Assembly (NCBI GenBank): GCA_043813075.1
Contig: JBDRLL010000017.1
Coordinates: 1 to 42,927, forward strand
Direction: 5' to 3'
Origin: Candidatus Altiarchaeota archaeon
GTDB taxonomy: Archaea > Altiarchaeota > Altiarchaeia > IMC4 > SCGC-AAA252-I15
Length of the DNA stretch: 42,927 nt
The position numbers and the translations under genes are program-made. Position 1 is the stretch's first letter, and each line of letters begins with the position of its first letter. The notes below the pieces were generated by a model. That model had not been told where the DNA came from and searched no databases. It saw nothing but the letters and a program-made list of their open reading frames with translations. Shown here piece after piece: positions 13,122 to 22,958 of this stretch.

Positions 13122-14063
13122 TCAACGCGTCGCCCTTAACGCTAGACGGCCCATCTCGTCCACATCAAGACTGCATTGGTATCCGCTTAACCGGTGGGGG
13201 TCGTCGAATCGGAATTCCAGCCTCGCATTCCCGTCATGGCCGATGGTCTTCTTGATCTCAAAGAATTCAGCGGGCTTGAGAGAACCGCCTATCTCCTCAA
13301 CCCTCGAGAAGCCCATAGTCGTCTCACCAGTATCAGTGTTTCTGCGCACCAGGCATTTGCTCAGGAACGATATTAACGGACTATTGTGGCTGACGTCAAC
13401 CATTATCGCCCGCGAACCGTCCTTCAGGCTGTCGGCCATCCCAAGCTGCCTAAGCAATAGTCTTGCCACATTGCTTGCGGCCGTATCAACGAATCCCGGA
13501 TACTGTTGCAAAGCAAGATTGCAGACGTAGTCCTCGGCATCCTGCATCGCAGCCTTCCTCTGACGCTCATCATACTGCGCATAACCAGGATGATGCTCCC
13601 TCATGAAGGGCCCCTGAAGATTTGTGAGAGCGCCATCGCACAAGTGCACTAGACCCTCGTAGGAAAGCTCGTCCCGATTCCGGTGGACTAGGGGGTTGCC
13701 ACTGGAGTCGAAACGCGTTAAATGAGGGCTCGGCGAGTCTTCAATTGCCTGACTAGCACCCTCTGAAATCATCTGACCTGTGAAATGAGCCCTCTCTATA
13801 CCACTGCTATACACTTTAACGCCATACACTTCATCTGTGGGAGTGGTATGGTCCAGGCCGTATCCATATGAAAAAGCCTGCCGCTCACCACCCTCACTCA
13901 GCGGAGAATCACCTGTCTTATCCTTCTCACCATGTCTCCCCACCTTCAGCACGAGAACTACCTTAGGCACATCCTTCGTCTCCTGCCTGGCAAGCTCATC
14001 CTGAACGCCTACACGCCCCGCAGCACCGACCGGCTTCTGCCCCACACCAGACATGTCAACCAT
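13122..14063 (-). CDS. Histidine phosphatase superfamily protein (divergent)
   Basis: GRHGEK, LSEGGERQA, YSSGIERA and VSH motifs. The ATG at 14063 overlaps the upstream stop (TGATG) and is preferred over the GTG at 14099. Confidence 0.7.
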   Translation of the reverse strand: MVDMSGVGQKPVGAAGRVGVQDELARQETKDVPKVVLVLKVGRHGEKDKTGDSPLSEGGERQAFSYGYGLDHTTPTDEVYGVKVYSSGIERAHFTGQMISEGASQAIEDSPSPHLTRFDSSGNPLVHRNRDELSYEGLVHLCDGALTNLQGPFMREHHPGYAQYDERQRKAAMQDAEDYVCNLALQQYPGFVDTAASNVARLLLRQLGMADSLKDGSRAIMVDVSHNSPLISFLSKCLVRRNTDTGETTMGFSRVEEIGGSLKPAEFFEIKKTIGHDGNARLEFRFDDPHRLSGYQCSLDVDEMGRLALRATR

Positions 14064-16471
14064 CAGATACTTGTTATCGGCCGGGACTGCAGTATCCACA
14101 ACCTGCCTTCCCAGTCTATGGTAAATTCTACGTCTTGAGGGTATTTATAGTGTCTTTCAAGCCTTATGCCGGCCTTAGCGACCACCCTCAGCAGGGACTG
14201 GTCCACACTGAATGTCTCCATGGATTTTTCTATGGAAAGCGTCTTCCGGTTCAGCATGTATTCGTTTGGCGTCACAATGCCTGAAACAAGCTTGTCGCCA
14301 AGTCCCTTAACAACCTCAACAAGCATCTGCTGCGCCTCAATTGGGTCAATGGTGAACATGACCCCAGAATAACGCGGATTAATCATCTCCTGCACCACCA
14401 CTGCTATAAGGACGTCGTGACCCATACGATTGGACTCACGGTAATGTATAGCCCGCGGAGTGTATAGTGAAGCCCAACAGTATTTGACTGAATTAATGAG
14501 CTTTGAAGCGCCCTTAACGTTAAGCAGTGTGTCGTGCTGCCCGGCGAAACTTGCGTCAGGCATATCCTCCATTGTAGCAGAGCTCCTGACCGCGACCTTC
14601 TTTATGGAGAGTTTCCTGTAGAATGATATTATATCAGACTCGAGTTCTTTTGAGAGCTCGTTGGAGAGTATTACGTGCCTTATTCGCCTAGATGCCTTCT
14701 TTACCTCCAACGGATCCGTCATGTCACATTCGACAAGCACCTCCTTCACTCTCCCGTAAATGTTGTTCTGGATTATGAAGTCACGGTATGCCCGGGTTGT
14801 GACGCAGAAGCCGTTAGGAACATTGAAATTAGAGTGCATTTCCCCCAGGTTAGCGCCCTTCCCCCCGGCAGACGGGACGTCAGCCCTATCAAGCTCGTCA
14901 AGCCACACAACCCTCTCCTCCCGCACAGGGCTCAGAACAGATTTTGGCGTGCGCAACCTAGGCTTCCGCCTGACGACGCCATCACCCATGCGTATTATCT
15001 CCTTCTTCGTTATCTTCCTGACTATGCCCTTGTTCGCGTCAACCAGAACATAATCACCGTCCTTGAATATCTTTGTCGCCATCCGGGTACCGATAACACA
15101 TGGAACACCCAGCTCCCTGCTGAGTATGGCGGCGTGGGATGCTATACCCCCCTCATCAGTCACTATCGCCGATGCCTTCTTCATCGCGTATATCAAGTGT
15201 GGCCGAGTCATTCCCGTGACCAGGATCTGCCCCCGCTCCATCTTCCTGACTTCAGCCTCCTGATTCCGGGTTAAAGCGTTTATCACCTTGACCCGCCCGG
15301 AGACTATCCCCGGGTTAGCCACGCCACCACATACCTCGTTTATGTTACTATAGTCTGCCTCAACAAGTTCCCTTGACTCCAGACGACAGACCTGAAGTCC
15401 AGTGTAAAAGTATAACCTGCCTTTAATGAGGAGGAACGCGTATCTCTTCCGGTTTTGAACCTCCATAACGTCAATCTTCTTTTTCCTCAGCAAAAGCCGT
15501 CTCACATCCTTCAGCAGGTAGTATTCAAGCTCCCCACGCCTGACACCAGTCCTCCTGGAGATCTCCCGATGCACCTTACGCATCAGGAATCCGCTTTCAA
15601 TCCACGTGAACCTTATCTTAAGCCTAAGGTGCGCCAGCTCCCTGACTATAGCAAGCAGATAGTAGATGTCCTCGCTAATGTCCAGCCGGTTAATCAGTCG
15701 TGATTGACGCCGCCTTAACTGCTGTTTCCGAGTCTTCTTGGCCTTAATCCTCTCCATCAGCTCGTTCTTACCCAAGAGTATGTCCCTTGAAAGCAGTTCC
15801 TGATAGTGAGAGATGCTCCACGGACTCCTCTGCTCTGACGTACCAATCCAACCGTACTTCCTCTTATGCTCAGCCAATCTATTCTGGATTAATCCATCAG
15901 AACCAAGGCCTGCCTTCTTAACGTCAAGAACCATGTTCAGCCAGTCAAGCTCCTCATAATCCAAGAGAGTCATCTCAGTGCTCGTGGTCAGGACGCTGAA
16001 AACCTCATTAACCCTCTCCTCCCCAATCCCACTGGAGAGTAGATACTCCCTGACCTTATCCTCGACAGCAATGAAATATTCAGGCCTTGACAGGTCGTAA
16101 GTGCATTGAAGTATCCCAATCCGCCGTATGACTTCACCATACCGTTCAGCAAGCTCCCGGTTAGAGAGCTTCTTCTGCACCCGGATGGTTTCCCTTATCA
16201 GTTTTATTAGCCCAGTATAGTTCTCTATCGTGGACTCGACGTACCCCCTCATCAAGTCCTGGTCCTGGAGTATCTTAAGTGAGTGTCGAGTCTTACGTTC
16301 AAGGTCCTTCCGCGAGTAATACATGTGCATTACGTTATCCTTGCACAAGCCCATCAGCCGGCTGTAGTCGCTGCCAAGAACCTTACCCTCCCCATGGCCC
16401 ATGAAGAAGGCCTCCATCCTGTGGAGGGGGTGGACGGTCTCCCATCTCAGCACCCACTCTGTCTTTGCCAT
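14063..16471 (-). CDS. PEP-synthase/PPDK-family dikinase with permuted domain order (helical domain, phospho-His swivel, C-terminal ATP-grasp)
   Basis: TDEGGIASHAAILSRELGVPCVIGT (His at about aa 446), then GGKGANLG, VAVRSSATMED..SFAGQHDT, PQDVEF, ILQSRPIT at the C-terminus; no PEP/pyruvate TIM barrel. Confidence 0.85.
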   Translation of the reverse strand: MAKTEWVLRWETVHPLHRMEAFFMGHGEGKVLGSDYSRLMGLCKDNVMHMYYSRKDLERKTRHSLKILQDQDLMRGYVESTIENYTGLIKLIRETIRVQKKLSNRELAERYGEVIRRIGILQCTYDLSRPEYFIAVEDKVREYLLSSGIGEERVNEVFSVLTTSTEMTLLDYEELDWLNMVLDVKKAGLGSDGLIQNRLAEHKRKYGWIGTSEQRSPWSISHYQELLSRDILLGKNELMERIKAKKTRKQQLRRRQSRLINRLDISEDIYYLLAIVRELAHLRLKIRFTWIESGFLMRKVHREISRRTGVRRGELEYYLLKDVRRLLLRKKKIDVMEVQNRKRYAFLLIKGRLYFYTGLQVCRLESRELVEADYSNINEVCGGVANPGIVSGRVKVINALTRNQEAEVRKMERGQILVTGMTRPHLIYAMKKASAIVTDEGGIASHAAILSRELGVPCVIGTRMATKIFKDGDYVLVDANKGIVRKITKKEIIRMGDGVVRRKPRLRTPKSVLSPVREERVVWLDELDRADVPSAGGKGANLGEMHSNFNVPNGFCVTTRAYRDFIIQNNIYGRVKEVLVECDMTDPLEVKKASRRIRHVILSNELSKELESDIISFYRKLSIKKVAVRSSATMEDMPDASFAGQHDTLLNVKGASKLINSVKYCWASLYTPRAIHYRESNRMGHDVLIAVVVQEMINPRYSGVMFTIDPIEAQQMLVEVVKGLGDKLVSGIVTPNEYMLNRKTLSIEKSMETFSVDQSLLRVVAKAGIRLERHYKYPQDVEFTIDWEGRLWILQSRPITSI

Positions 16472-16538: not shown

Positions 16539-18788
16539 ATGCGTCTGAACAGGATTACGCTTGAAAACTGGTCTTGCCACGAGAAGCTTGAGGCAGACTT
16601 GACTGAAGGCCTCCAGATACTCGGCAGGAACGGGACAGGAAAGACTAGCATACTTGAGGCCATAAAGTTCTTGTTCAAGAAGACCGCTTCAGGGTATTCT
16701 AACCGCGTACGTAATGGCGCTAGGAGTGCTTACGTCAGGCTTGCTTTCACACACGACAGTAGGGAGTACGTCGTTGAAAAGAAGATTCTTCTGGAGAAGC
16801 CTTCGACCGCATTAATGACGTGTGATGGAGTGCAGGTAGCAGACAACCCCACTTCAGTGTACAATAGCCTCAACAACATTCTAAGCGAAGACATGCTGGA
16901 GAGGCTGCTTTACGTCCCGCAATCGGGCCTCACTGGCATACTGGACAGACTGAGTGGAAGGGAAGGGAAGGTCGAGATGGACAGGCTCTTCGGGCTGGAC
17001 AGGCTCGAGAGGGTTTGGACTGGCGTGGGGGAGGACCTGAAGGAGCAGGATGCGAGGGTCTCTGTGCTCTCAGACCAGATAAAGAAACACCCTGAGGACG
17101 CTGAGGAATCCTACCGGAGAGACATAGAAGAGTTCAGGAAGGGTGAAGGCGAATTGCGGGAGAAGCTACTTAAGAACGAGGAATACAGGAAAAATGCCGA
17201 GTCAAACCTGAAAAAGTCTGAAGAGTCCCTCAAGGGGATTAATGAGGCGAAAAGGAGGATAGATTCGTTGAACACTGAATTTAATAGGACTAGTATCGGT
17301 CTCGCTGAAGCTGAGAAGGAGATAGAGTCAGCGCAAGCAAGGCTGGAAGAGCTGCGAAGCAAGGGGGAGGAGCTCGCTAAACTCGAGTCAGAGAAGAAAA
17401 AGCTGGATAAATACCCCAGATTCAGGGTTACTCTCAGCAGTATTATGGAAATAAATTCAAGGCTTGATGAGTTAAGCACTGTTGAAGAGGAAAAACGGAT
17501 TACGGAACTTGAAGAAACCCTTAAGAAGAAGCCTGAAGCGGAGAGGGAGTACGCTGAACTCGAGGGGAAATACCAGTCCCTCCAGAAAAGCCATACCGAA
17601 GCCGCGGTTGGGGTGAAGCAAAAGGTGGACTTCATAGACGAGCTGGACACGCTGGGAGGGAAAGCGAAATGCCCGAGGTGCGGTCAGAAACTCGACTCAT
17701 TCCACTTGACGAAGGAGAAACAGGATACTGCCGTGATGCTGGAGAGGATGTACGAAAACCTGAAGAAAATCGAGGCAGAGATGGCGAACATAAAAGCAGT
17801 ATACGATGACATGAAGGCGAGCATGGAGGAGTACCGGAAGGATGAGGCAGAATATGGGCAGCTAAGGAATCAGTTGGAGAAGGCTGTTAGAGAGAGAAAA
17901 AGGCTGTGTGACGAGCGCGACTCCAATATGATGACTCTAGAATCCATGGGCTATTCGGGAGAGACTATCGAATTCGTGGAGCAGAAGGTCGCTGACTCAA
18001 ACAGGATGGACGGAGCCATAAGAGAGCTTCGCAAGGAGATCATCCTGAAGGATAGGATATCAGAGGGTAAGGACGAGTCGGTTAAGAGAAAGATAATGCA
18101 CGAGTCCAGGAGGGATGAGCTACGAAAGGAGTTGGGCGAAATATCATATGACACCGGAGAGCATGAAAGGCTTCAGAACGAGAGAGACATTCTATCAAGC
18201 GAGAAACACCGCCTAGACTCAGAATGCAATACGCTCTCCGCAGACATTAAGAGAATCAGCGAACAGACGATGGAGCGGGAGAAAAAGCTTGTTGACTATA
18301 TGGAGTTGGTAAAAGAGCACTCGGATGCCGAGCGCATGTCCAGGAAACTCGCCCAGGCACGGGAGATATTCCACAGGGACAAGGGACTCGTGAAGTACGC
18401 GCGTGAAAGCTTTATAGGGGGCTTGAACTCCATACTAACAAACTACTTCAACAGGTTCAACCAAAACCCGAGATACCTCAACGTGTCATTCACAAGGGAA
18501 TATGACATAGAATTCAAGACCAGCAACGGAACACTCTCACTCGACCAGATTTCAGGAGGGGAAAAGATACAACTGGCATTAGCGTTGAGGATAGCCTTAA
18601 TAGAATTGATGTCACCAGTCAGGATGCTCATCCTGGACGAGCCCTTCGGAAGCCTTGACGAACCACACAGGGAGATACTAGGCGAAGCCCTGACAAAAAT
18701 CTCGGAGACAGGCCAGCTGATAATCGTTACCCATGTGGAAGTCGAAAGCCTCCAGCTACACAACAAGATCGAGCTGGAAGGCTACTAG
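16539..18788 (+). CDS. Rad50/SbcC-family SMC-like ATPase
   Basis: Walker A GRNGTGKTS, Q-loop YVPQ, coiled coil with central zinc hook CPRCG, signature SGGE, Walker B LILDEP..LD, H-loop VTH. Confidence 0.92.
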   Translation: MRLNRITLENWSCHEKLEADLTEGLQILGRNGTGKTSILEAIKFLFKKTASGYSNRVRNGARSAYVRLAFTHDSREYVVEKKILLEKPSTALMTCDGVQVADNPTSVYNSLNNILSEDMLERLLYVPQSGLTGILDRLSGREGKVEMDRLFGLDRLERVWTGVGEDLKEQDARVSVLSDQIKKHPEDAEESYRRDIEEFRKGEGELREKLLKNEEYRKNAESNLKKSEESLKGINEAKRRIDSLNTEFNRTSIGLAEAEKEIESAQARLEELRSKGEELAKLESEKKKLDKYPRFRVTLSSIMEINSRLDELSTVEEEKRITELEETLKKKPEAEREYAELEGKYQSLQKSHTEAAVGVKQKVDFIDELDTLGGKAKCPRCGQKLDSFHLTKEKQDTAVMLERMYENLKKIEAEMANIKAVYDDMKASMEEYRKDEAEYGQLRNQLEKAVRERKRLCDERDSNMMTLESMGYSGETIEFVEQKVADSNRMDGAIRELRKEIILKDRISEGKDESVKRKIMHESRRDELRKELGEISYDTGEHERLQNERDILSSEKHRLDSECNTLSADIKRISEQTMEREKKLVDYMELVKEHSDAERMSRKLAQAREIFHRDKGLVKYARESFIGGLNSILTNYFNRFNQNPRYLNVSFTREYDIEFKTSNGTLSLDQISGGEKIQLALALRIALIELMSPVRMLILDEPFGSLDEPHREILGEALTKISETGQLIIVTHVEVESLQLHNKIELEGY

Positions 18789-20116
18789 CCCCCACCAGAC
18801 CTCAGTTCTCTCGCTATCTCCTTGCTCCTGACGACGTCAGGCTGGTCAAACGGATTCAAGTCCCTTAGTAATGCAGGATACACGCCAAACGCATATTGGC
18901 TGAAAGCCATAAGGCATCCCGCAGCCTGCGGGGTCATCCCATCGACGGCCACTTTTAGGACAGGTATTGGCGGAATCCTTGACGCTGCGTCACCGATAGT
19001 CCCATCAGACTCGAAAGAAAGCGAGTCCTCAAGCAATACGCCGTCAAAAGCACTGAGCCCCCCCACTTCAGGCCTGGCTATCGTGAAGAATACGCCAGCC
19101 TTATTAGGCTTTCCGCCGAAGAACCATTGGTTGGTGTTGTGCTGTGACTCCGGGCCTGAAGCAGCTATCATAGCCTGCCCTTCACCTGACTTGCACCCGC
19201 TCTCGTGCTGTAACTGGGTTATGAGGTGGAGGAATCCGTCAAACCTGTGGGAATACATTGGCGCATAGATTATAACACAATCTTTCTTCAATTCAAGATA
19301 ACGCATTACTGAGGCGGTCATTAACGCAGGATTTGTCTCCTGCCCGGCATGCGGCCCTATCCTCCCATAGGCCTGCAAAGCCCCGTTGTTAAAGTCCAAT
19401 AATTCTTCCTTGGACATTCCCAGCAGCGCGAGGGGTAGTGTTCCTACAGACGTTCGGCCAGTGAACCGCCCGCCTATCGGAGGATGCTCCAGTATGAGAT
19501 CACCCACGTGTTCACCCACCATCCTCTTAAGCCGCTCGTATAGGGGCCTACCATCCTTTCTCGAGGTTATCCCACATACCTTGTATCCGGTGAACTGGCT
19601 TAGCGAGTCCATGACGCCCTGCGTCGTGCCTGACTTGCTTATCACCAGGACAATAGTGCTTTCAGGACTGCACTCCCGCTTTATGCTGGCGATGTTGTCG
19701 GGATCCATGTCGTCGACAACACATAATCTTTTACCATAGTATCTCTCATCAGTCGAATACTTCACTAGAGCATGGTATAGCGCTTTCGAACTGCTTATAG
19801 AACCACCGTTACCTATGACCACCACATTCCTGACATCAGTAACCCCATGAACATCAACTATCCTCTCCGCATCCTGGACAAGAGCCCCCACATCAAAGTC
19901 ATAGGCATGGAATATGGGTTCACCACCGACAACATGGTTTTCAACAGGATCCCGGCGTTCTGGAGATAACTCACGGTCGCTCTTAAACAGGTATCCTGGG
20001 CTTAACTGCGCTTGCACCCTCGATAACTCCGTTTTCAGTGTTTCTCTGACAGCATCCAACCCCACCGTAGCGTTCTTGAAATCGACTTTCAGGCTTTTTA
20101 GTGCTATCGAATCCAT
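18785..20116 (-). CDS. pgi: Glucose-6-phosphate isomerase (PGI family, divergent)
   Basis: VIGNGGS, ISKSGTT, GGRF, QLxxESxxK, SQH, LNPFDQPDV..SK. Confidence 0.8.
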   Translation of the reverse strand: MDSIALKSLKVDFKNATVGLDAVRETLKTELSRVQAQLSPGYLFKSDRELSPERRDPVENHVVGGEPIFHAYDFDVGALVQDAERIVDVHGVTDVRNVVVIGNGGSISSSKALYHALVKYSTDERYYGKRLCVVDDMDPDNIASIKRECSPESTIVLVISKSGTTQGVMDSLSQFTGYKVCGITSRKDGRPLYERLKRMVGEHVGDLILEHPPIGGRFTGRTSVGTLPLALLGMSKEELLDFNNGALQAYGRIGPHAGQETNPALMTASVMRYLELKKDCVIIYAPMYSHRFDGFLHLITQLQHESGCKSGEGQAMIAASGPESQHNTNQWFFGGKPNKAGVFFTIARPEVGGLSAFDGVLLEDSLSFESDGTIGDAASRIPPIPVLKVAVDGMTPQAAGCLMAFSQYAFGVYPALLRDLNPFDQPDVVRSKEIARELRSGGG

Positions 20117-20131
20117 TGCTGGTTATATTGA

Positions 20132-21010
20132 TTATACTCTGATTTTAAGTATCGAAGCATCATGATCCCCCGCGTTAACAAGAGTGCATGACTCCCCCAG
20201 GACTGCTGAATCAGATACGCCAAGAGGCGTATCCCCCAGCAATAGTCGTCCGCATATCACGACAACTGCCGATGAAGCAGCTTCCACAATGCCTCCCGGC
20301 GGGACATCAATCAATTCGAAATGAACCCTTGACTCTGAGTCAGGATAATCCAACAACCGCTCTAAAAGCTCACCACCCCTCGGAAACCTCTCATCAGACA
20401 CCCTCAAAGCCTCAACACCCAGACTGAAGTCCGCATAATCAAGCTCCCGCTCGACATCCCTAAGAACAAGATGGAAGGTCCTGTTGGATGCCTCCTGAGG
20501 CTCCACGATAACGAACCGGTCTTCCATGACGTGGTGGCCGACAACCCATACCTCATCCTTTGGTTCTACCAGCGGATGATGGACTTGGAGTGATAGTGAA
20601 TTTCCAGCCGCATGCGGGATTCCACAGGGTATGTAGATGGCCTTAACGTCACCCTGACGCAATTCAATCCGGTTGAGGTATTTATCACATAAACCATCGA
20701 CTTTTAGGCGATATTCCTTGAAATCCCCGTGGACGTACTCCTCTCTTTCACGATTCATATCCTCCATATCAGAGATGAAGTCATCTAGCTCAACGCCATC
20801 CCTCAACCCAACCCACAATACTGTCTCACCAGTGATGAAGAGGAATTTAACGTAAGCATCATTTGTCAACGGGATGGATACGGCCCCAACATTATCACCT
20901 TCCAAGGGGATGCGCCTCCCAAGAAAACTTCCCACCATGGCTGCCGGCCATCCCCAAAGCTTGCGCTCTATTTCTGGCGGCGTCCAAGAGCTTGTCTTTT
21001 CAGACATCAT
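20132..21010 (-). CDS. Type I phosphomannose isomerase-like cupin protein (motifs in non-canonical order)
   Basis: ERKLWG, VKFL, YIPCGIPHA, LSLQVH, KDEVW, EPQEASNRTF; SD GGTGATAC before the ATG; directly upstream of pgi. Confidence 0.7.
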   Translation of the reverse strand: MMSEKTSSWTPPEIERKLWGWPAAMVGSFLGRRIPLEGDNVGAVSIPLTNDAYVKFLFITGETVLWVGLRDGVELDDFISDMEDMNREREEYVHGDFKEYRLKVDGLCDKYLNRIELRQGDVKAIYIPCGIPHAAGNSLSLQVHHPLVEPKDEVWVVGHHVMEDRFVIVEPQEASNRTFHLVLRDVERELDYADFSLGVEALRVSDERFPRGGELLERLLDYPDSESRVHFELIDVPPGGIVEAASSAVVVICGRLLLGDTPLGVSDSAVLGESCTLVNAGDHDASILKIRV

Positions 21011-21052
21011 GTATCACCGTATGTAGGGGTAATTGAATTACAGGAATAAAAT

Positions 21053-22405
21053 CTACTTGAAACCTAGCTTACCTGTCTTGAACAAGTATACCACCAGTCC
21101 GAGCGGTATTGCCAGGGAGATTATGACCAGCGCAAGAACTATGACGGTTGCCGTCGAATAACCCTCCTGATAAACCACATTGCCTGCAGGATACTCATTC
21201 CCCGGCAACTCGGATGCGCCGGGTATGCCCACGCACTGGTAGCTGCTTGAACAGTAGCTTCCCTTAGGGCAGTCTCTGGTGGTACAACACCCCACCTCCC
21301 CTGCAACAGGTTTTTCACCGCACTGCTTATCCTCACTGCAGTATGGCTCAATAATACTCTTTGATGGCATGTCACACTTGACCGCAGTCCCACAGTCAGC
21401 GTCTTTCTCGCACTCTGCCTTCAGCACACACTTGGATTCCGTGTCAGTAATCCACTTGCAGTAGAAGTCTCCCGCACCCCGGCAGTCGTCGGAAGTGCAG
21501 CACTCGATGCCCGTGGTTATCTGCCTCACCATCGAACACGACTTCCTATCCTTCTGCTTGATGCAGTTGACGGTCCCGTCAGGCAGCACATCCTTCTCAA
21601 CGCAAATCTTCTGGCCTGTGGGCTCGCAGCCATAAAGCATGAGCTTATTACCGCTACATACGGCACCAAGCGTCCGGTTGCCCCACTTTCGCTGGTAAGG
21701 GTATATTGAAGCACAGTCACCGTCGCCAGAGCATTGGTCGCACGTGTTGTCGCACTGTCTCCTAAGGCTGAAGTCAGTCACCTCAAAACACTGGCCCTCG
21801 CCGATATTACTGCTCCCACCACCATACAAACCCCCTTTTGAGTCGTAAACCCTGTCATATCCTTCAGGGTTGAACGTACAGCCTACAGACCCGGGTATCT
21901 GCTTGCCGGCCGTGCAGTCCGCAGCCTTCCCCGTGCCCCTGAGAATGTACTTGTCTATGTAGGCTTCTTCAACCATGATGTTGCTGCCGGACCAGACGTA
22001 GATGCTCTCTCCAGGCTTGAGGTCCTTAGAAACTGACTGGCCTAACGCCAGGTGGAACTGCTTCTCTTCCGCGCACTTCCATCTGCTGTATCCCTCCGAC
22101 TCCACCTGCTGGGAGCAGACGCCAGACCCTATGAAGTAGTCGTATCCAAGCGCAAGCATGAGTTCACCCCGCAGGTGGACCCTGCATTTCTTAACGTCAA
22201 TGTCATCAGGGCATGTTACTGGGGGGTTGCCTGAGAGGGGATTCTTGTCCATCAGGGCCACCTCCATCGAGTCAGCGTCCTCACCGTAGGAACAACAGCA
22301 TACGTAGTTGAAGTCGTTGCAGTATATGTTCTGACAGTTCTCCGCTGCTGAAGCAGAGAATGCTAGAGACATAAGACACAGCAGAGATAAGACTATCTTC
22401 CCCAT
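21053..22405 (-). CDS. Cys-rich membrane-anchored surface protein
   Basis: Signal peptide from MGKIVLSLL (start 22405 or 22414; the ORF-track extension to 22630 overlaps the LEA gene); repeated CxxDxDC modules; C-terminal TM and Lys tail. Confidence 0.8.
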   Translation of the reverse strand: MGKIVLSLLCLMSLAFSASAAENCQNIYCNDFNYVCCCSYGEDADSMEVALMDKNPLSGNPPVTCPDDIDVKKCRVHLRGELMLALGYDYFIGSGVCSQQVESEGYSRWKCAEEKQFHLALGQSVSKDLKPGESIYVWSGSNIMVEEAYIDKYILRGTGKAADCTAGKQIPGSVGCTFNPEGYDRVYDSKGGLYGGGSSNIGEGQCFEVTDFSLRRQCDNTCDQCSGDGDCASIYPYQRKWGNRTLGAVCSGNKLMLYGCEPTGQKICVEKDVLPDGTVNCIKQKDRKSCSMVRQITTGIECCTSDDCRGAGDFYCKWITDTESKCVLKAECEKDADCGTAVKCDMPSKSIIEPYCSEDKQCGEKPVAGEVGCCTTRDCPKGSYCSSSYQCVGIPGASELPGNEYPAGNVVYQEGYSTATVIVLALVIISLAIPLGLVVYLFKTGKLGFK

Positions 22406-22430
22406 ACCAAACATTGAGTATTGTGAGCCA

Positions 22431-22441
22431 GGATATAAATA
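22431..22441. promoter_or_regulatory. Candidate bidirectional TATA box
   Basis: GATATAAATA lies about 20-28 nt from both divergent starts (22405 and 22461). Confidence 0.45.
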
Positions 22442-22460
22442 GCAGGAGATATAGTTAACA

Positions 22461-22958
22461 ATGGATAGGGATAAGGTCATCATACTGGCCGTGGTCACAG
22501 CATCATTGATCGCCATAACAGCCGGGTTCATTCTATGGCCGAAGGTATCCCAGCCTCCTGAAGTCAGGTTCTCAAGCGCGAGGATAGGTGATGTTGAGAC
22601 TGTCAGCCTCTTGGGTTTTGAAGTCCCCAAGTCCGTTGAAATCGCGGTTGAGCTGGAAGTCTATAATCCGAACATGATCAGCATCACAGTCAAGGGTGCT
22701 GAATACGGGGTTTCAGTTAACAACGCGCAGGTAGGCAAGGGCAGCCTCTCCAAGCCCATAGTCATACCGCCCGGGGAAAGCGTTAGTATCGAGACTGTTG
22801 TCGTAATCACCGCTGAATCCGGATTGAAGGGGATAATCGGAGTCATACAGAAGAAGTCATTCACAGTCAGGGTGCAGGGGGAGGTGGAGGTGGAAGTCCC
22901 CTTAATAGGCTCCATGAGGATTCCAGTGGACGCCAAACAGGATATAGCTAGCCTGTGA
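22461..22958 (+). CDS. LEA type 2 / WHy domain membrane protein
   Basis: N-terminal TM; LEVYNPN, Y-x-V-x-VNN..VGKG, IPPGES motifs. Confidence 0.85.
   Translation: MDRDKVIILAVVTASLIAITAGFILWPKVSQPPEVRFSSARIGDVETVSLLGFEVPKSVEIAVELEVYNPNMISITVKGAEYGVSVNNAQVGKGSLSKPIVIPPGESVSIETVVVITAESGLKGIIGVIQKKSFTVRVQGEVEVEVPLIGSMRIPVDAKQDIASL

Follow-up and report, generated by a model that had tools for sequence, protein, structure and literature searches.

A PMI-like protein with the cupin motifs in reversed order

The window analysed here is the whole of contig JBDRLL010000017.1 (42,927 nucleotides; assembly GCA_043813075.1, Candidatus Altiarchaeota archaeon). Its minus strand carries an open reading frame (ORF), P0001, whose product is a very distant member of the type I phosphomannose isomerase (PMI; ManA/Pmi) fold. 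A divergent pgi gene starts 15 nt past its stop codon on the same strand, and P0001 thus lies directly upstream of pgi, as an earlier note made from the letters of this DNA had stated (Table 1). In canonical PMIs the strands with the QxH and KxE motifs precede the helical insert and the distal His follows it. P0001 lacks this order: the hairpin is missing from its usual place, and a segment of the same type stands directly after His133. On balance, and with moderate confidence, we read P0001 as a diverged type I PMI-fold protein in which the hairpin has been relocated and the order of the cupin motifs reversed, and whose most likely function would be that of a hexose-phosphate isomerase. The cupin metal site would probably have undergone a genuine non-circular permutation.

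Table 1. Features of the P0001 gene and its immediate surroundings (positions refer to the window).
Feature	Residues	Position	Strand	Sequence and remarks
PMI-fold ORF P0001	1-292	20132..21010	minus	292 aa, ATG start; from the ORF list
Domain layout of P0001				Catalytic cupin, helical insert, C-terminal cupin (hhalign, AF2, VIA)
N-terminal K-L-W-G-W	17-21	20948..20962	minus	Equivalent of PMI 'IWGG'
K55 strand and pre-helix strand	53-69	20804..20854	minus	YVKFLFITGETVLWVGL; the K55 strand is followed directly by the pre-helix strand
Helical insert	75-111	20678..20788	minus	Model DSSP helices 75-93 and 97-111
Cupin motif 2	120-135	20606..20653	minus	GDVKAIYIPCGIPHAA; contains His133
24-residue insert	136-159	20534..20605	minus	GNSLSLQVHHPLVEPKDEVWVVGH; motif-1-like hairpin with Q142, H144, K151, E153
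ExQ strand	165-185	20456..20518	minus	RFVIVEPQEASNRTFHLVLRD; equivalent of 'EIQQxSDxTYR', canonically next after the His strand
C-terminal cupin domain	226-292	20135..20335	minus	Collinear hhalign match to the PMI C-terminal domain; model strands 230-291
42-nt spacer 5' of the P0001 ORF		21011..21052	minus	GGTGA 4 nt before the ATG; A/T-rich ATTTTATT box ~40 nt upstream
pgi, divergent		18785..20116	minus	443 aa; PF00342, E 2.1e-10

Direct reading of the translation places all motifs at the residues given in the earlier note: KLWG at 17-20, VKFL at 54-57, LWVG at 65-68, RIELRQGD...YIPCGIPHA with H133, LSLQVH with Q142 and H144, KDEVW with E153, and EPQEASNRTF at 170-179. In cupin notation this is G120-x7-P-x-G-x2-H133 (motif 2), then G136-x5-Q142-x-H144-x8-E153-x4-G158 (motif 1). 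The generic cupin signature, in the form quoted in PMC2684688, is GX5HXHX3,4EX6G ... GX5PXGX2HX3N, with two motifs of two strands each. Both motif types are common to this signature and P0001; however, motif 1 (HXH..E) precedes motif 2 (PXG..H) in the generic cupin, whereas in P0001 motif 2 comes first and motif 1 is immediately adjacent to it. The Zn-ligand residue types of PMIs, Gln, His, Glu and His, are all present (Q142, H144, E153 and H133) and are conserved in P0002, one of two relatives described below. The pattern LS.Q[VIL]H.{4,30}K.E.W has a single match in 1.97 million residues of six-frame segments of the genome, which is the P0001 site, and a single match in the 6,896-aa protein that contains P0002, at the homologous place. 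As this pattern was picked after the site had been seen, the profile test given below is less post hoc.

Assignment to the type I PMI fold

The reference sets for the profile comparisons were 85 ManA sequences of the long type, drawn from E. coli, plasmid records and 79 of 80 GTDB loci fetched, and 25 short-type PMIs from Spirochaetota genomes. A homologue search with E. coli ManA was of little use, as only enterobacterial sequences were among the matches listed (at least 120, at least 87% identical). The profile of the three-member family formed by P0001, P0002 and P0003 aligned in hhalign with the long-type profile at 97.3% probability (E 2.1e-11) and with the short-type profile at 97.4% (E 9.7e-12). 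The two alignments run collinearly from end to end with few exceptions, nearly spanning the whole length, and establish homology at the profile-profile level. Motif 2 of P0001 falls on the PMI sequence 'GD..fIPaG.vHA'. In the 28 rows of the combined alignment of family and short-type PMIs, W19, G20, K55, G130, H133, A134, E170, Q172, S175, T178 and D185 are invariant.

The structure prediction agrees with this assignment. AlphaFold2 (AF2), run on the 28-row alignment, produced a model with a mean predicted local distance difference test (pLDDT) of 83.8 and a predicted template modelling score (pTM) of 0.82. The model comprises a catalytic cupin, a helical insert and a C-terminal cupin, so that the AlphaFold check proposed in the earlier note yielded the PMI fold, and the helical insert named there is predicted as two helices. 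Among PDB entries, the best Foldseek matches were PMI from Bacillus subtilis (1QWR, E 3.5e-8), the Archaeoglobus fulgidus protein 1ZX5 and Salmonella PMI entries. The 16 top-ranking rows in VIA-align are type I PMIs without exception, with Z-scores of 13.4-14.3 over model residues 2-292, and the next row has a Z-score of 9.7. Strands of the model span residues 52-60 and 64-69, then, after the helices, 112-116, 125-127, 133-135, 141-144, 153-156 and 165-173; the pair at 141-144 and 153-156 belongs to the insert, which has a pLDDT of 74-85. AF2 on the three-sequence alignment gave an unusable model (pLDDT 46.3), with which Foldseek found nothing at E<=0.001.

Conventional sequence searches are nearly blind to this relationship. 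Pfam, NCBIfam and PDB sequence searches with P0001, with its residues 1-195 or with the three-member profile returned no matches or chance matches only; in Pfam, no family was found at E<=1 for full-length P0001 or at E<=10 for residues 1-195. P0001 stays below the cut-offs of PF20511 and PF21621, and PF20511 has no match in the genome at E<=10. Custom PMI hidden Markov models (HMMs) reached E 8.7 on P0001, with the match split into two pieces that flank the insert.

The vacant canonical site and the insert after His133

In the hhalign alignments, the family consensus 'pfYxKFLFIxge-pViWvGlk' lies on the canonical segments 'FPLLIKxIDA...' and '...kLixGLK', and the canonical LSVQVHPDdeYA...GKtEmWYI..A..gA between them is aligned to a gap. 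The QxH and KxE strands are hence missing between the K55 strand and the pre-helix strand. Directly after the motif-2 His, P0001 and P0002 both carry an insertion (24 residues in P0001) that is absent from 110 of 110 canonical PMIs. The stretch between the invariant His and the invariant Glu of the ExQ strand, counted on the alignment, is 36 residues in P0001, 43 in P0002 and 12 in P0003; it is 9 in all 25 short-type and 8 in all 85 long-type sequences. The central observation of the earlier note, that the QVH/KxE hairpin is absent from its usual place and present after the distal His, is thereby borne out. That note had also named a collinear full-length alignment to a known cupin family as an outcome that would speak against its reading; such an alignment does exist in form, yet it carries no ligand hairpin and does not refute the reading.

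Beside the collinear match with its gapped hairpin, hhalign reports a second, out-of-order match of the insert on the canonical hairpin, as the earlier note had expected. In the long-type profile 'AAGxxLSxQiH' aligns with 'aAxxpLSIQVH' (E 0.0016), and in the short-type profile 'LSxQiH...KDExW' aligns with 'LSVQVHP...GKtEmW' (E 0.0033).

In a further test, the columns of the insert were shifted in silico to each of 55 sites in the family alignment, with re-scoring against the short-type profile every time. The hhalign score is 87.4 in the native order and 86.1 with the insert deleted. The score peaks at 123.0 (E 5.4e-17) when F58 and I59 flank the insert, exactly at the site of the missing canonical hairpin; at the 16 positions that lie outside alignment columns 97-169 it is 80-96. 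Shuffling the insert columns at F58/I59 (176 shuffles) gave a mean of 92.0, a standard deviation of 3.7 and a maximum of 104.7, and the reversed insert scored 91.5 at the canonical site. Transplantation likewise raised the score against the long-type profile from 86.7 to 102.0, that of P0001 alone from 38.3 to 62.6 (45 shuffles, maximum 46.9) and that of the P0002 domain alone from 55.9 to 80.0 (45 shuffles, maximum 67.9). In the transplanted alignment, Q142 and H144 fall on the canonical QVH, and K151 and E153 on the canonical KxE. Judged by these profile scores, the insert has been shown to be specifically similar to the canonical hairpin, and the motif arrangement is beyond chance.

A family of three

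Among 1.84 billion representative proteins, an exhaustive HMMER search identified only two relatives of P0001. P0002 forms a domain of its host protein (about residues 4644-4939), which is encoded on a 35.6-kb contig; Pfam gave no match at E<=10 on a 600-residue stretch around the domain, and a HAD-like region considered upstream of it was dropped, with no Pfam match behind it. P0003 is 356 aa long, is encoded on a contig of 1.7 kb and is labelled in its source as a 'quercetin dioxygenase-like cupin'. P0002, which comes from a different data set and is 33-36% identical to P0001, has the same motif order, so that the search for a homologue of this kind proposed in the earlier note found one. 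P0003 retains the ExQ strand as well as the His.

With the insert left aside, P0002 and P0003 resemble each other most (44.9% identity), and P0001 is 35-36% identical to each. Within the insert, P0001 and P0002 share 12 of 24 residues, compared with 35.6% over the remainder. A maximum-likelihood tree leaves the three-way fork of P0001, P0002 and P0003 unresolved; nevertheless, the closeness of P0002 to P0003 together with the conservation of the insert speaks for a common ancestor that already possessed the relocated hairpin and for a later loss in P0003, which may be a derivative devoid of the metal site. The proposal of a strand-swap permutation with all Zn ligands retained is supported in part: the PMI fold, the out-of-order match and one homologue with the same order are in its favour, and the ligands are kept in P0001 and P0002, but not in P0003.

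Other searches added no member. A word-indexed homologue search returned only P0001 itself with P0001 as the query, and only P0001 and P0003 with the family profile. The profile had 59 pattern matches on GTDB genome contigs and 120 on viral contigs, none of which was confirmed, and 231 on metagenome contigs, with one apparent relative, L002. This candidate was rejected, since its similarity is confined to 76 residues around CDKYLNRI in an A/T-rich 243-aa ORF with no invariant family motif. The L002 contig itself is A/T-rich, 3.9 kb long and carries ORFs that resemble glycosyltransferase or methyltransferase-type genes. P0001 was not found in the 40 related genomes searched, one of them of the same genus.

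Active-site residues and a model for the rearrangement

The Zn ligands of Candida albicans PMI are listed in PMC3765361 as Gln111, His113, Glu138 and His285. All 85 long-type sequences carry K86, Q97, H99, K132, E134, H255, E264 and R274 (E. coli numbering), and most of these residues have been targeted by mutation in Salmonella PMI, according to PDB entry titles. The P0001 equivalents of K86, H255 and E264, namely K55, H133 and E170, are in place, and Q142, H144, K151 and E153 are located in the insert.

The cupin jelly roll is built from the sheets B-I-D-G and C-H-E-F, in which strand C, with the QxH motif, runs antiparallel to strand H, with the motif-2 His, and strand D, with the Glu, pairs with strand I. 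Given these two pairings, a hairpin inserted between the His strand and the one after it could refill both positions. In the rearrangement that we propose, the motif-1 hairpin (Gln-x-His, Lys-x-Glu) would have been removed from between the Lys strand and the helical insert, and a hairpin of the same type, G-x5-Q-x-H...K-D-E-x-W, would now follow directly after H133 of motif 2. From its place between H and I, it could reach both vacated positions via two tight turns, with B joining E directly; on textbook topology, it would refill these positions and rebuild the Q/H/E/H site. The strand order in the AF2 model is compatible with this topology. From this arrangement we infer spatial equivalence of the hairpin with its canonical counterpart, metal binding and activity. 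The most economical origin would be an intragenic duplication of the hairpin into the post-His loop, followed by loss of the original copy.

Alternative explanations

Several observations weigh against the proposed rearrangement. The family has three members, all metagenomic, and only two rows of the alignment used for the AF2 model contain the insert. In the short-type alignment, the position of the phosphate-binding Arg (Arg274) is taken by H180, and an invariant Arg, R184, follows four residues later, which makes the Arg equivalence uncertain. Further points bear on specific alternatives.

The alternative that survives best, although we consider it unlikely, is that the 24-residue segment is an unrelated surface hairpin whose resemblance to LSxQVHP...KxExW is due to chance or convergence; the canonical metal site would have been lost once, and P0001 would possess no classical Zn site. 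Consistent with it, P0003 has the hairpin at neither the canonical nor the relocated place and lacks Q, H, K and E, so that the family can exist without the Q/H/K/E site. The out-of-order hhalign matches are weak when taken alone (probabilities of 16% and 9.6%), and the insert receives no significant score from an HMM built on the 32 canonical hairpin columns alone (domain score -0.1, rank 409 of 997 rows). The spacing from H144 to E153, 8 residues in P0001 and 10 in P0002, is far shorter than in any canonical PMI (~17-20 in the short type, 34 in the long type). On the other hand, the transplant score lies 18 units above all 176 shuffles, and the insert of each sequence alone also exceeds its shuffles. 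P0001 and P0002 both agree with the canonical motif at ten positions (L, S, Q, [VI], H, P, K, D/x, E and W), the insert is better conserved than the remainder of the two sequences, and the pairing of P0002 with P0003 favours loss in P0003 over two gains, within the limits of the unresolved fork.

A second alternative, rather improbable in our judgement, regards P0001, however its hairpin arose, as a decaying or non-catalytic PMI-like protein, for instance a sugar-phosphate-binding or regulatory cupin instead of an isomerase. P0001 is the most diverged member of the family, with a long branch (length 1.52) and a deviant composition, and it lacks ~45 N-terminal residues and ~10 residues of the C-terminal domain that are present in P0002 and P0003. 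These losses and the long branch could mean decay and leave real room for a non-catalytic protein. That it was not found in related genomes points in the same direction, as do the pgi orthologues of two genomes of the same family, which have upstream neighbours different from P0001. Against decay, the reading frame is intact, preceded by the Shine-Dalgarno-like GGTGA and tightly coupled to pgi; all residues invariant over the 28 rows are kept, as are Q, H, K and E of the hairpin, in spite of a background identity of 35%, and the AF2 model is confident.

A third alternative, that the motif order arose in assembly through a local chimera or rearrangement, is extremely improbable. In its favour, the source is a metagenome-assembled genome (41 contigs, 89% complete) and no read coverage was obtained over 20470-20850, the one read-derived contig (162 nt, from one DNA run in which 9% of the sampled words occur) covering 20983-21144 only. 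Against it, the same order in the independent P0002 makes misassembly very unlikely. The reading frame is uninterrupted, and the fold of the model is confident across the junctions. The insert has no flanking repeats (a single 14-nt chance pair occurs elsewhere), and the GC content of the gene (0.50) is similar to that of its neighbours.

Predicted function

Under the favoured reading of P0001 as a PMI-fold protein with a relocated hairpin, our best guess is a metal-dependent hexose-phosphate aldose-ketose isomerase, most simply one that converts mannose-6-phosphate to fructose-6-phosphate and is made together with the pgi product. The 89%-complete genome has no match to PF20511 or PF01050 and no other PMI-like frame, and it encodes two PGM/PMM and five NTP-transferase (sugar-nucleotidyl-transferase) genes. 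PF20511 was likewise not matched in 41 relatives and in 61 genomes of the phylum. The most far-reaching version of the proposal would make P0001 the first natural cupin enzyme with its motif-1 hairpin transposed past motif 2, with a working Q/H/E/H site, an active PMI that supplies the otherwise undetected step, and with P0003 as a case of secondary loss. We put this version forward tentatively; it is possible, but its chances are less than even.

Comparison with known systems

The short-type PMI of B. subtilis (1QWR) is the best structural match (VIA Z-score 14.3, root-mean-square deviation (rmsd) 3.1 Å over 219 residues). Its N-terminal strands, Lys strand, helices, His strand, ExQ strand and C-terminal cupin are collinear with those of P0001, and both proteins have the K-x-E-x-W form of the Glu strand. 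In the short type, however, the hairpin is located between the Lys strand and the helices, whereas in P0001 it comes after the His strand, with a His-to-Glu loop of 8 instead of ~17-20 residues; P0001 moreover has no PF20511 match and is missing ~45 N-terminal residues. The long-type ManA proteins (E. coli; Salmonella typhimurium, 3H1M and 2WFP; C. albicans, 1PMI) share the fold as well, with Z-scores of 13.4-13.9 beside the hhalign match at 97.3%. Here the equivalents of K86, H255 and E264 occupy their usual places and look-alikes of Q97, H99, K132 and E134 reside in the insert, but the motif order of P0001 is reversed, its helical domain is much shorter and the equivalent of Arg274 is uncertain. 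The putative mannose-phosphate isomerase 1ZX5 from A. fulgidus is, like P0001, archaeal, ~300 residues long and of the PMI fold (Foldseek E 7.1e-6; VIA Z-score 13.4, rmsd 3.0 Å over 214 residues). It is a solved structure from a different, larger family and, compared at the fold level, gives no sign of sharing the insert.

The nearest analogue in kind, a natural case of elements that keep their spatial places while swapping their order in the chain, is the major capsid protein of Bordetella phage BPP-1, which is described in PMC3863775 as a non-circular permutation of the HK97 ('Johnson') fold, such permutations being rare in nature. The capsid protein differs from P0001 in fold and function and has no remaining sequence similarity, whereas in P0001 the moved element is still recognizable and carries putative catalytic metal ligands. 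Full-text literature searches turned up no account of a permuted PMI or cupin, nor of a cupin with this motif order. To our knowledge, non-circular permutations are usually visible only in structures, at a stage at which sequence similarity has already faded.

In P0001, the relocated element remains recognizable by sequence and carries three of the four predicted catalytic metal ligands. If the proposal is correct, it would constitute a clean test of how far a cupin barrel tolerates changes in its strand order while keeping the active site. As the rearrangement splits an HMM match into two sub-threshold pieces, such enzymes stay unannotated, and they may add to the 'missing' PMI steps in genome-based metabolic reconstructions.

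Genomic neighbourhood

In the spacer upstream of P0001, the GGTGA is a candidate ribosome-binding site and the A/T-rich box a putative promoter. P0001 and pgi are probably co-transcribed. Against NCBIfam glucose-6-phosphate isomerase models, the pgi product scores 73-76 bits, with cut-offs of 350-487. Matches to it occur in 8 of 20 related genomes, and the genome of the same genus has only a 26%-identical match.

On the other side of the spacer, an ORF of 525 aa (21053-22630, minus strand), rich in cysteine and with a hydrophobic stretch at the C-terminus of its product, ends 42 nt upstream of the P0001 gene; a Pfam search of it gave no family at E<=1. Beyond pgi, a gene for a 749-aa SMC/Rad50-like ATPase (AAA_15, SMC_N, SbcC Walker B) on the plus strand (16539-18788) converges on pgi, with an overlap of 4 nt between their ends. 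A minus-strand gene (14063-16471) encodes an 802-aa phosphoenolpyruvate (PEP)-utilising enzyme, in which the mobile His domain PF00391 (residues 412-482) precedes the best PPDK_N ATP-binding stretch, PF01326 (residues 533-749).

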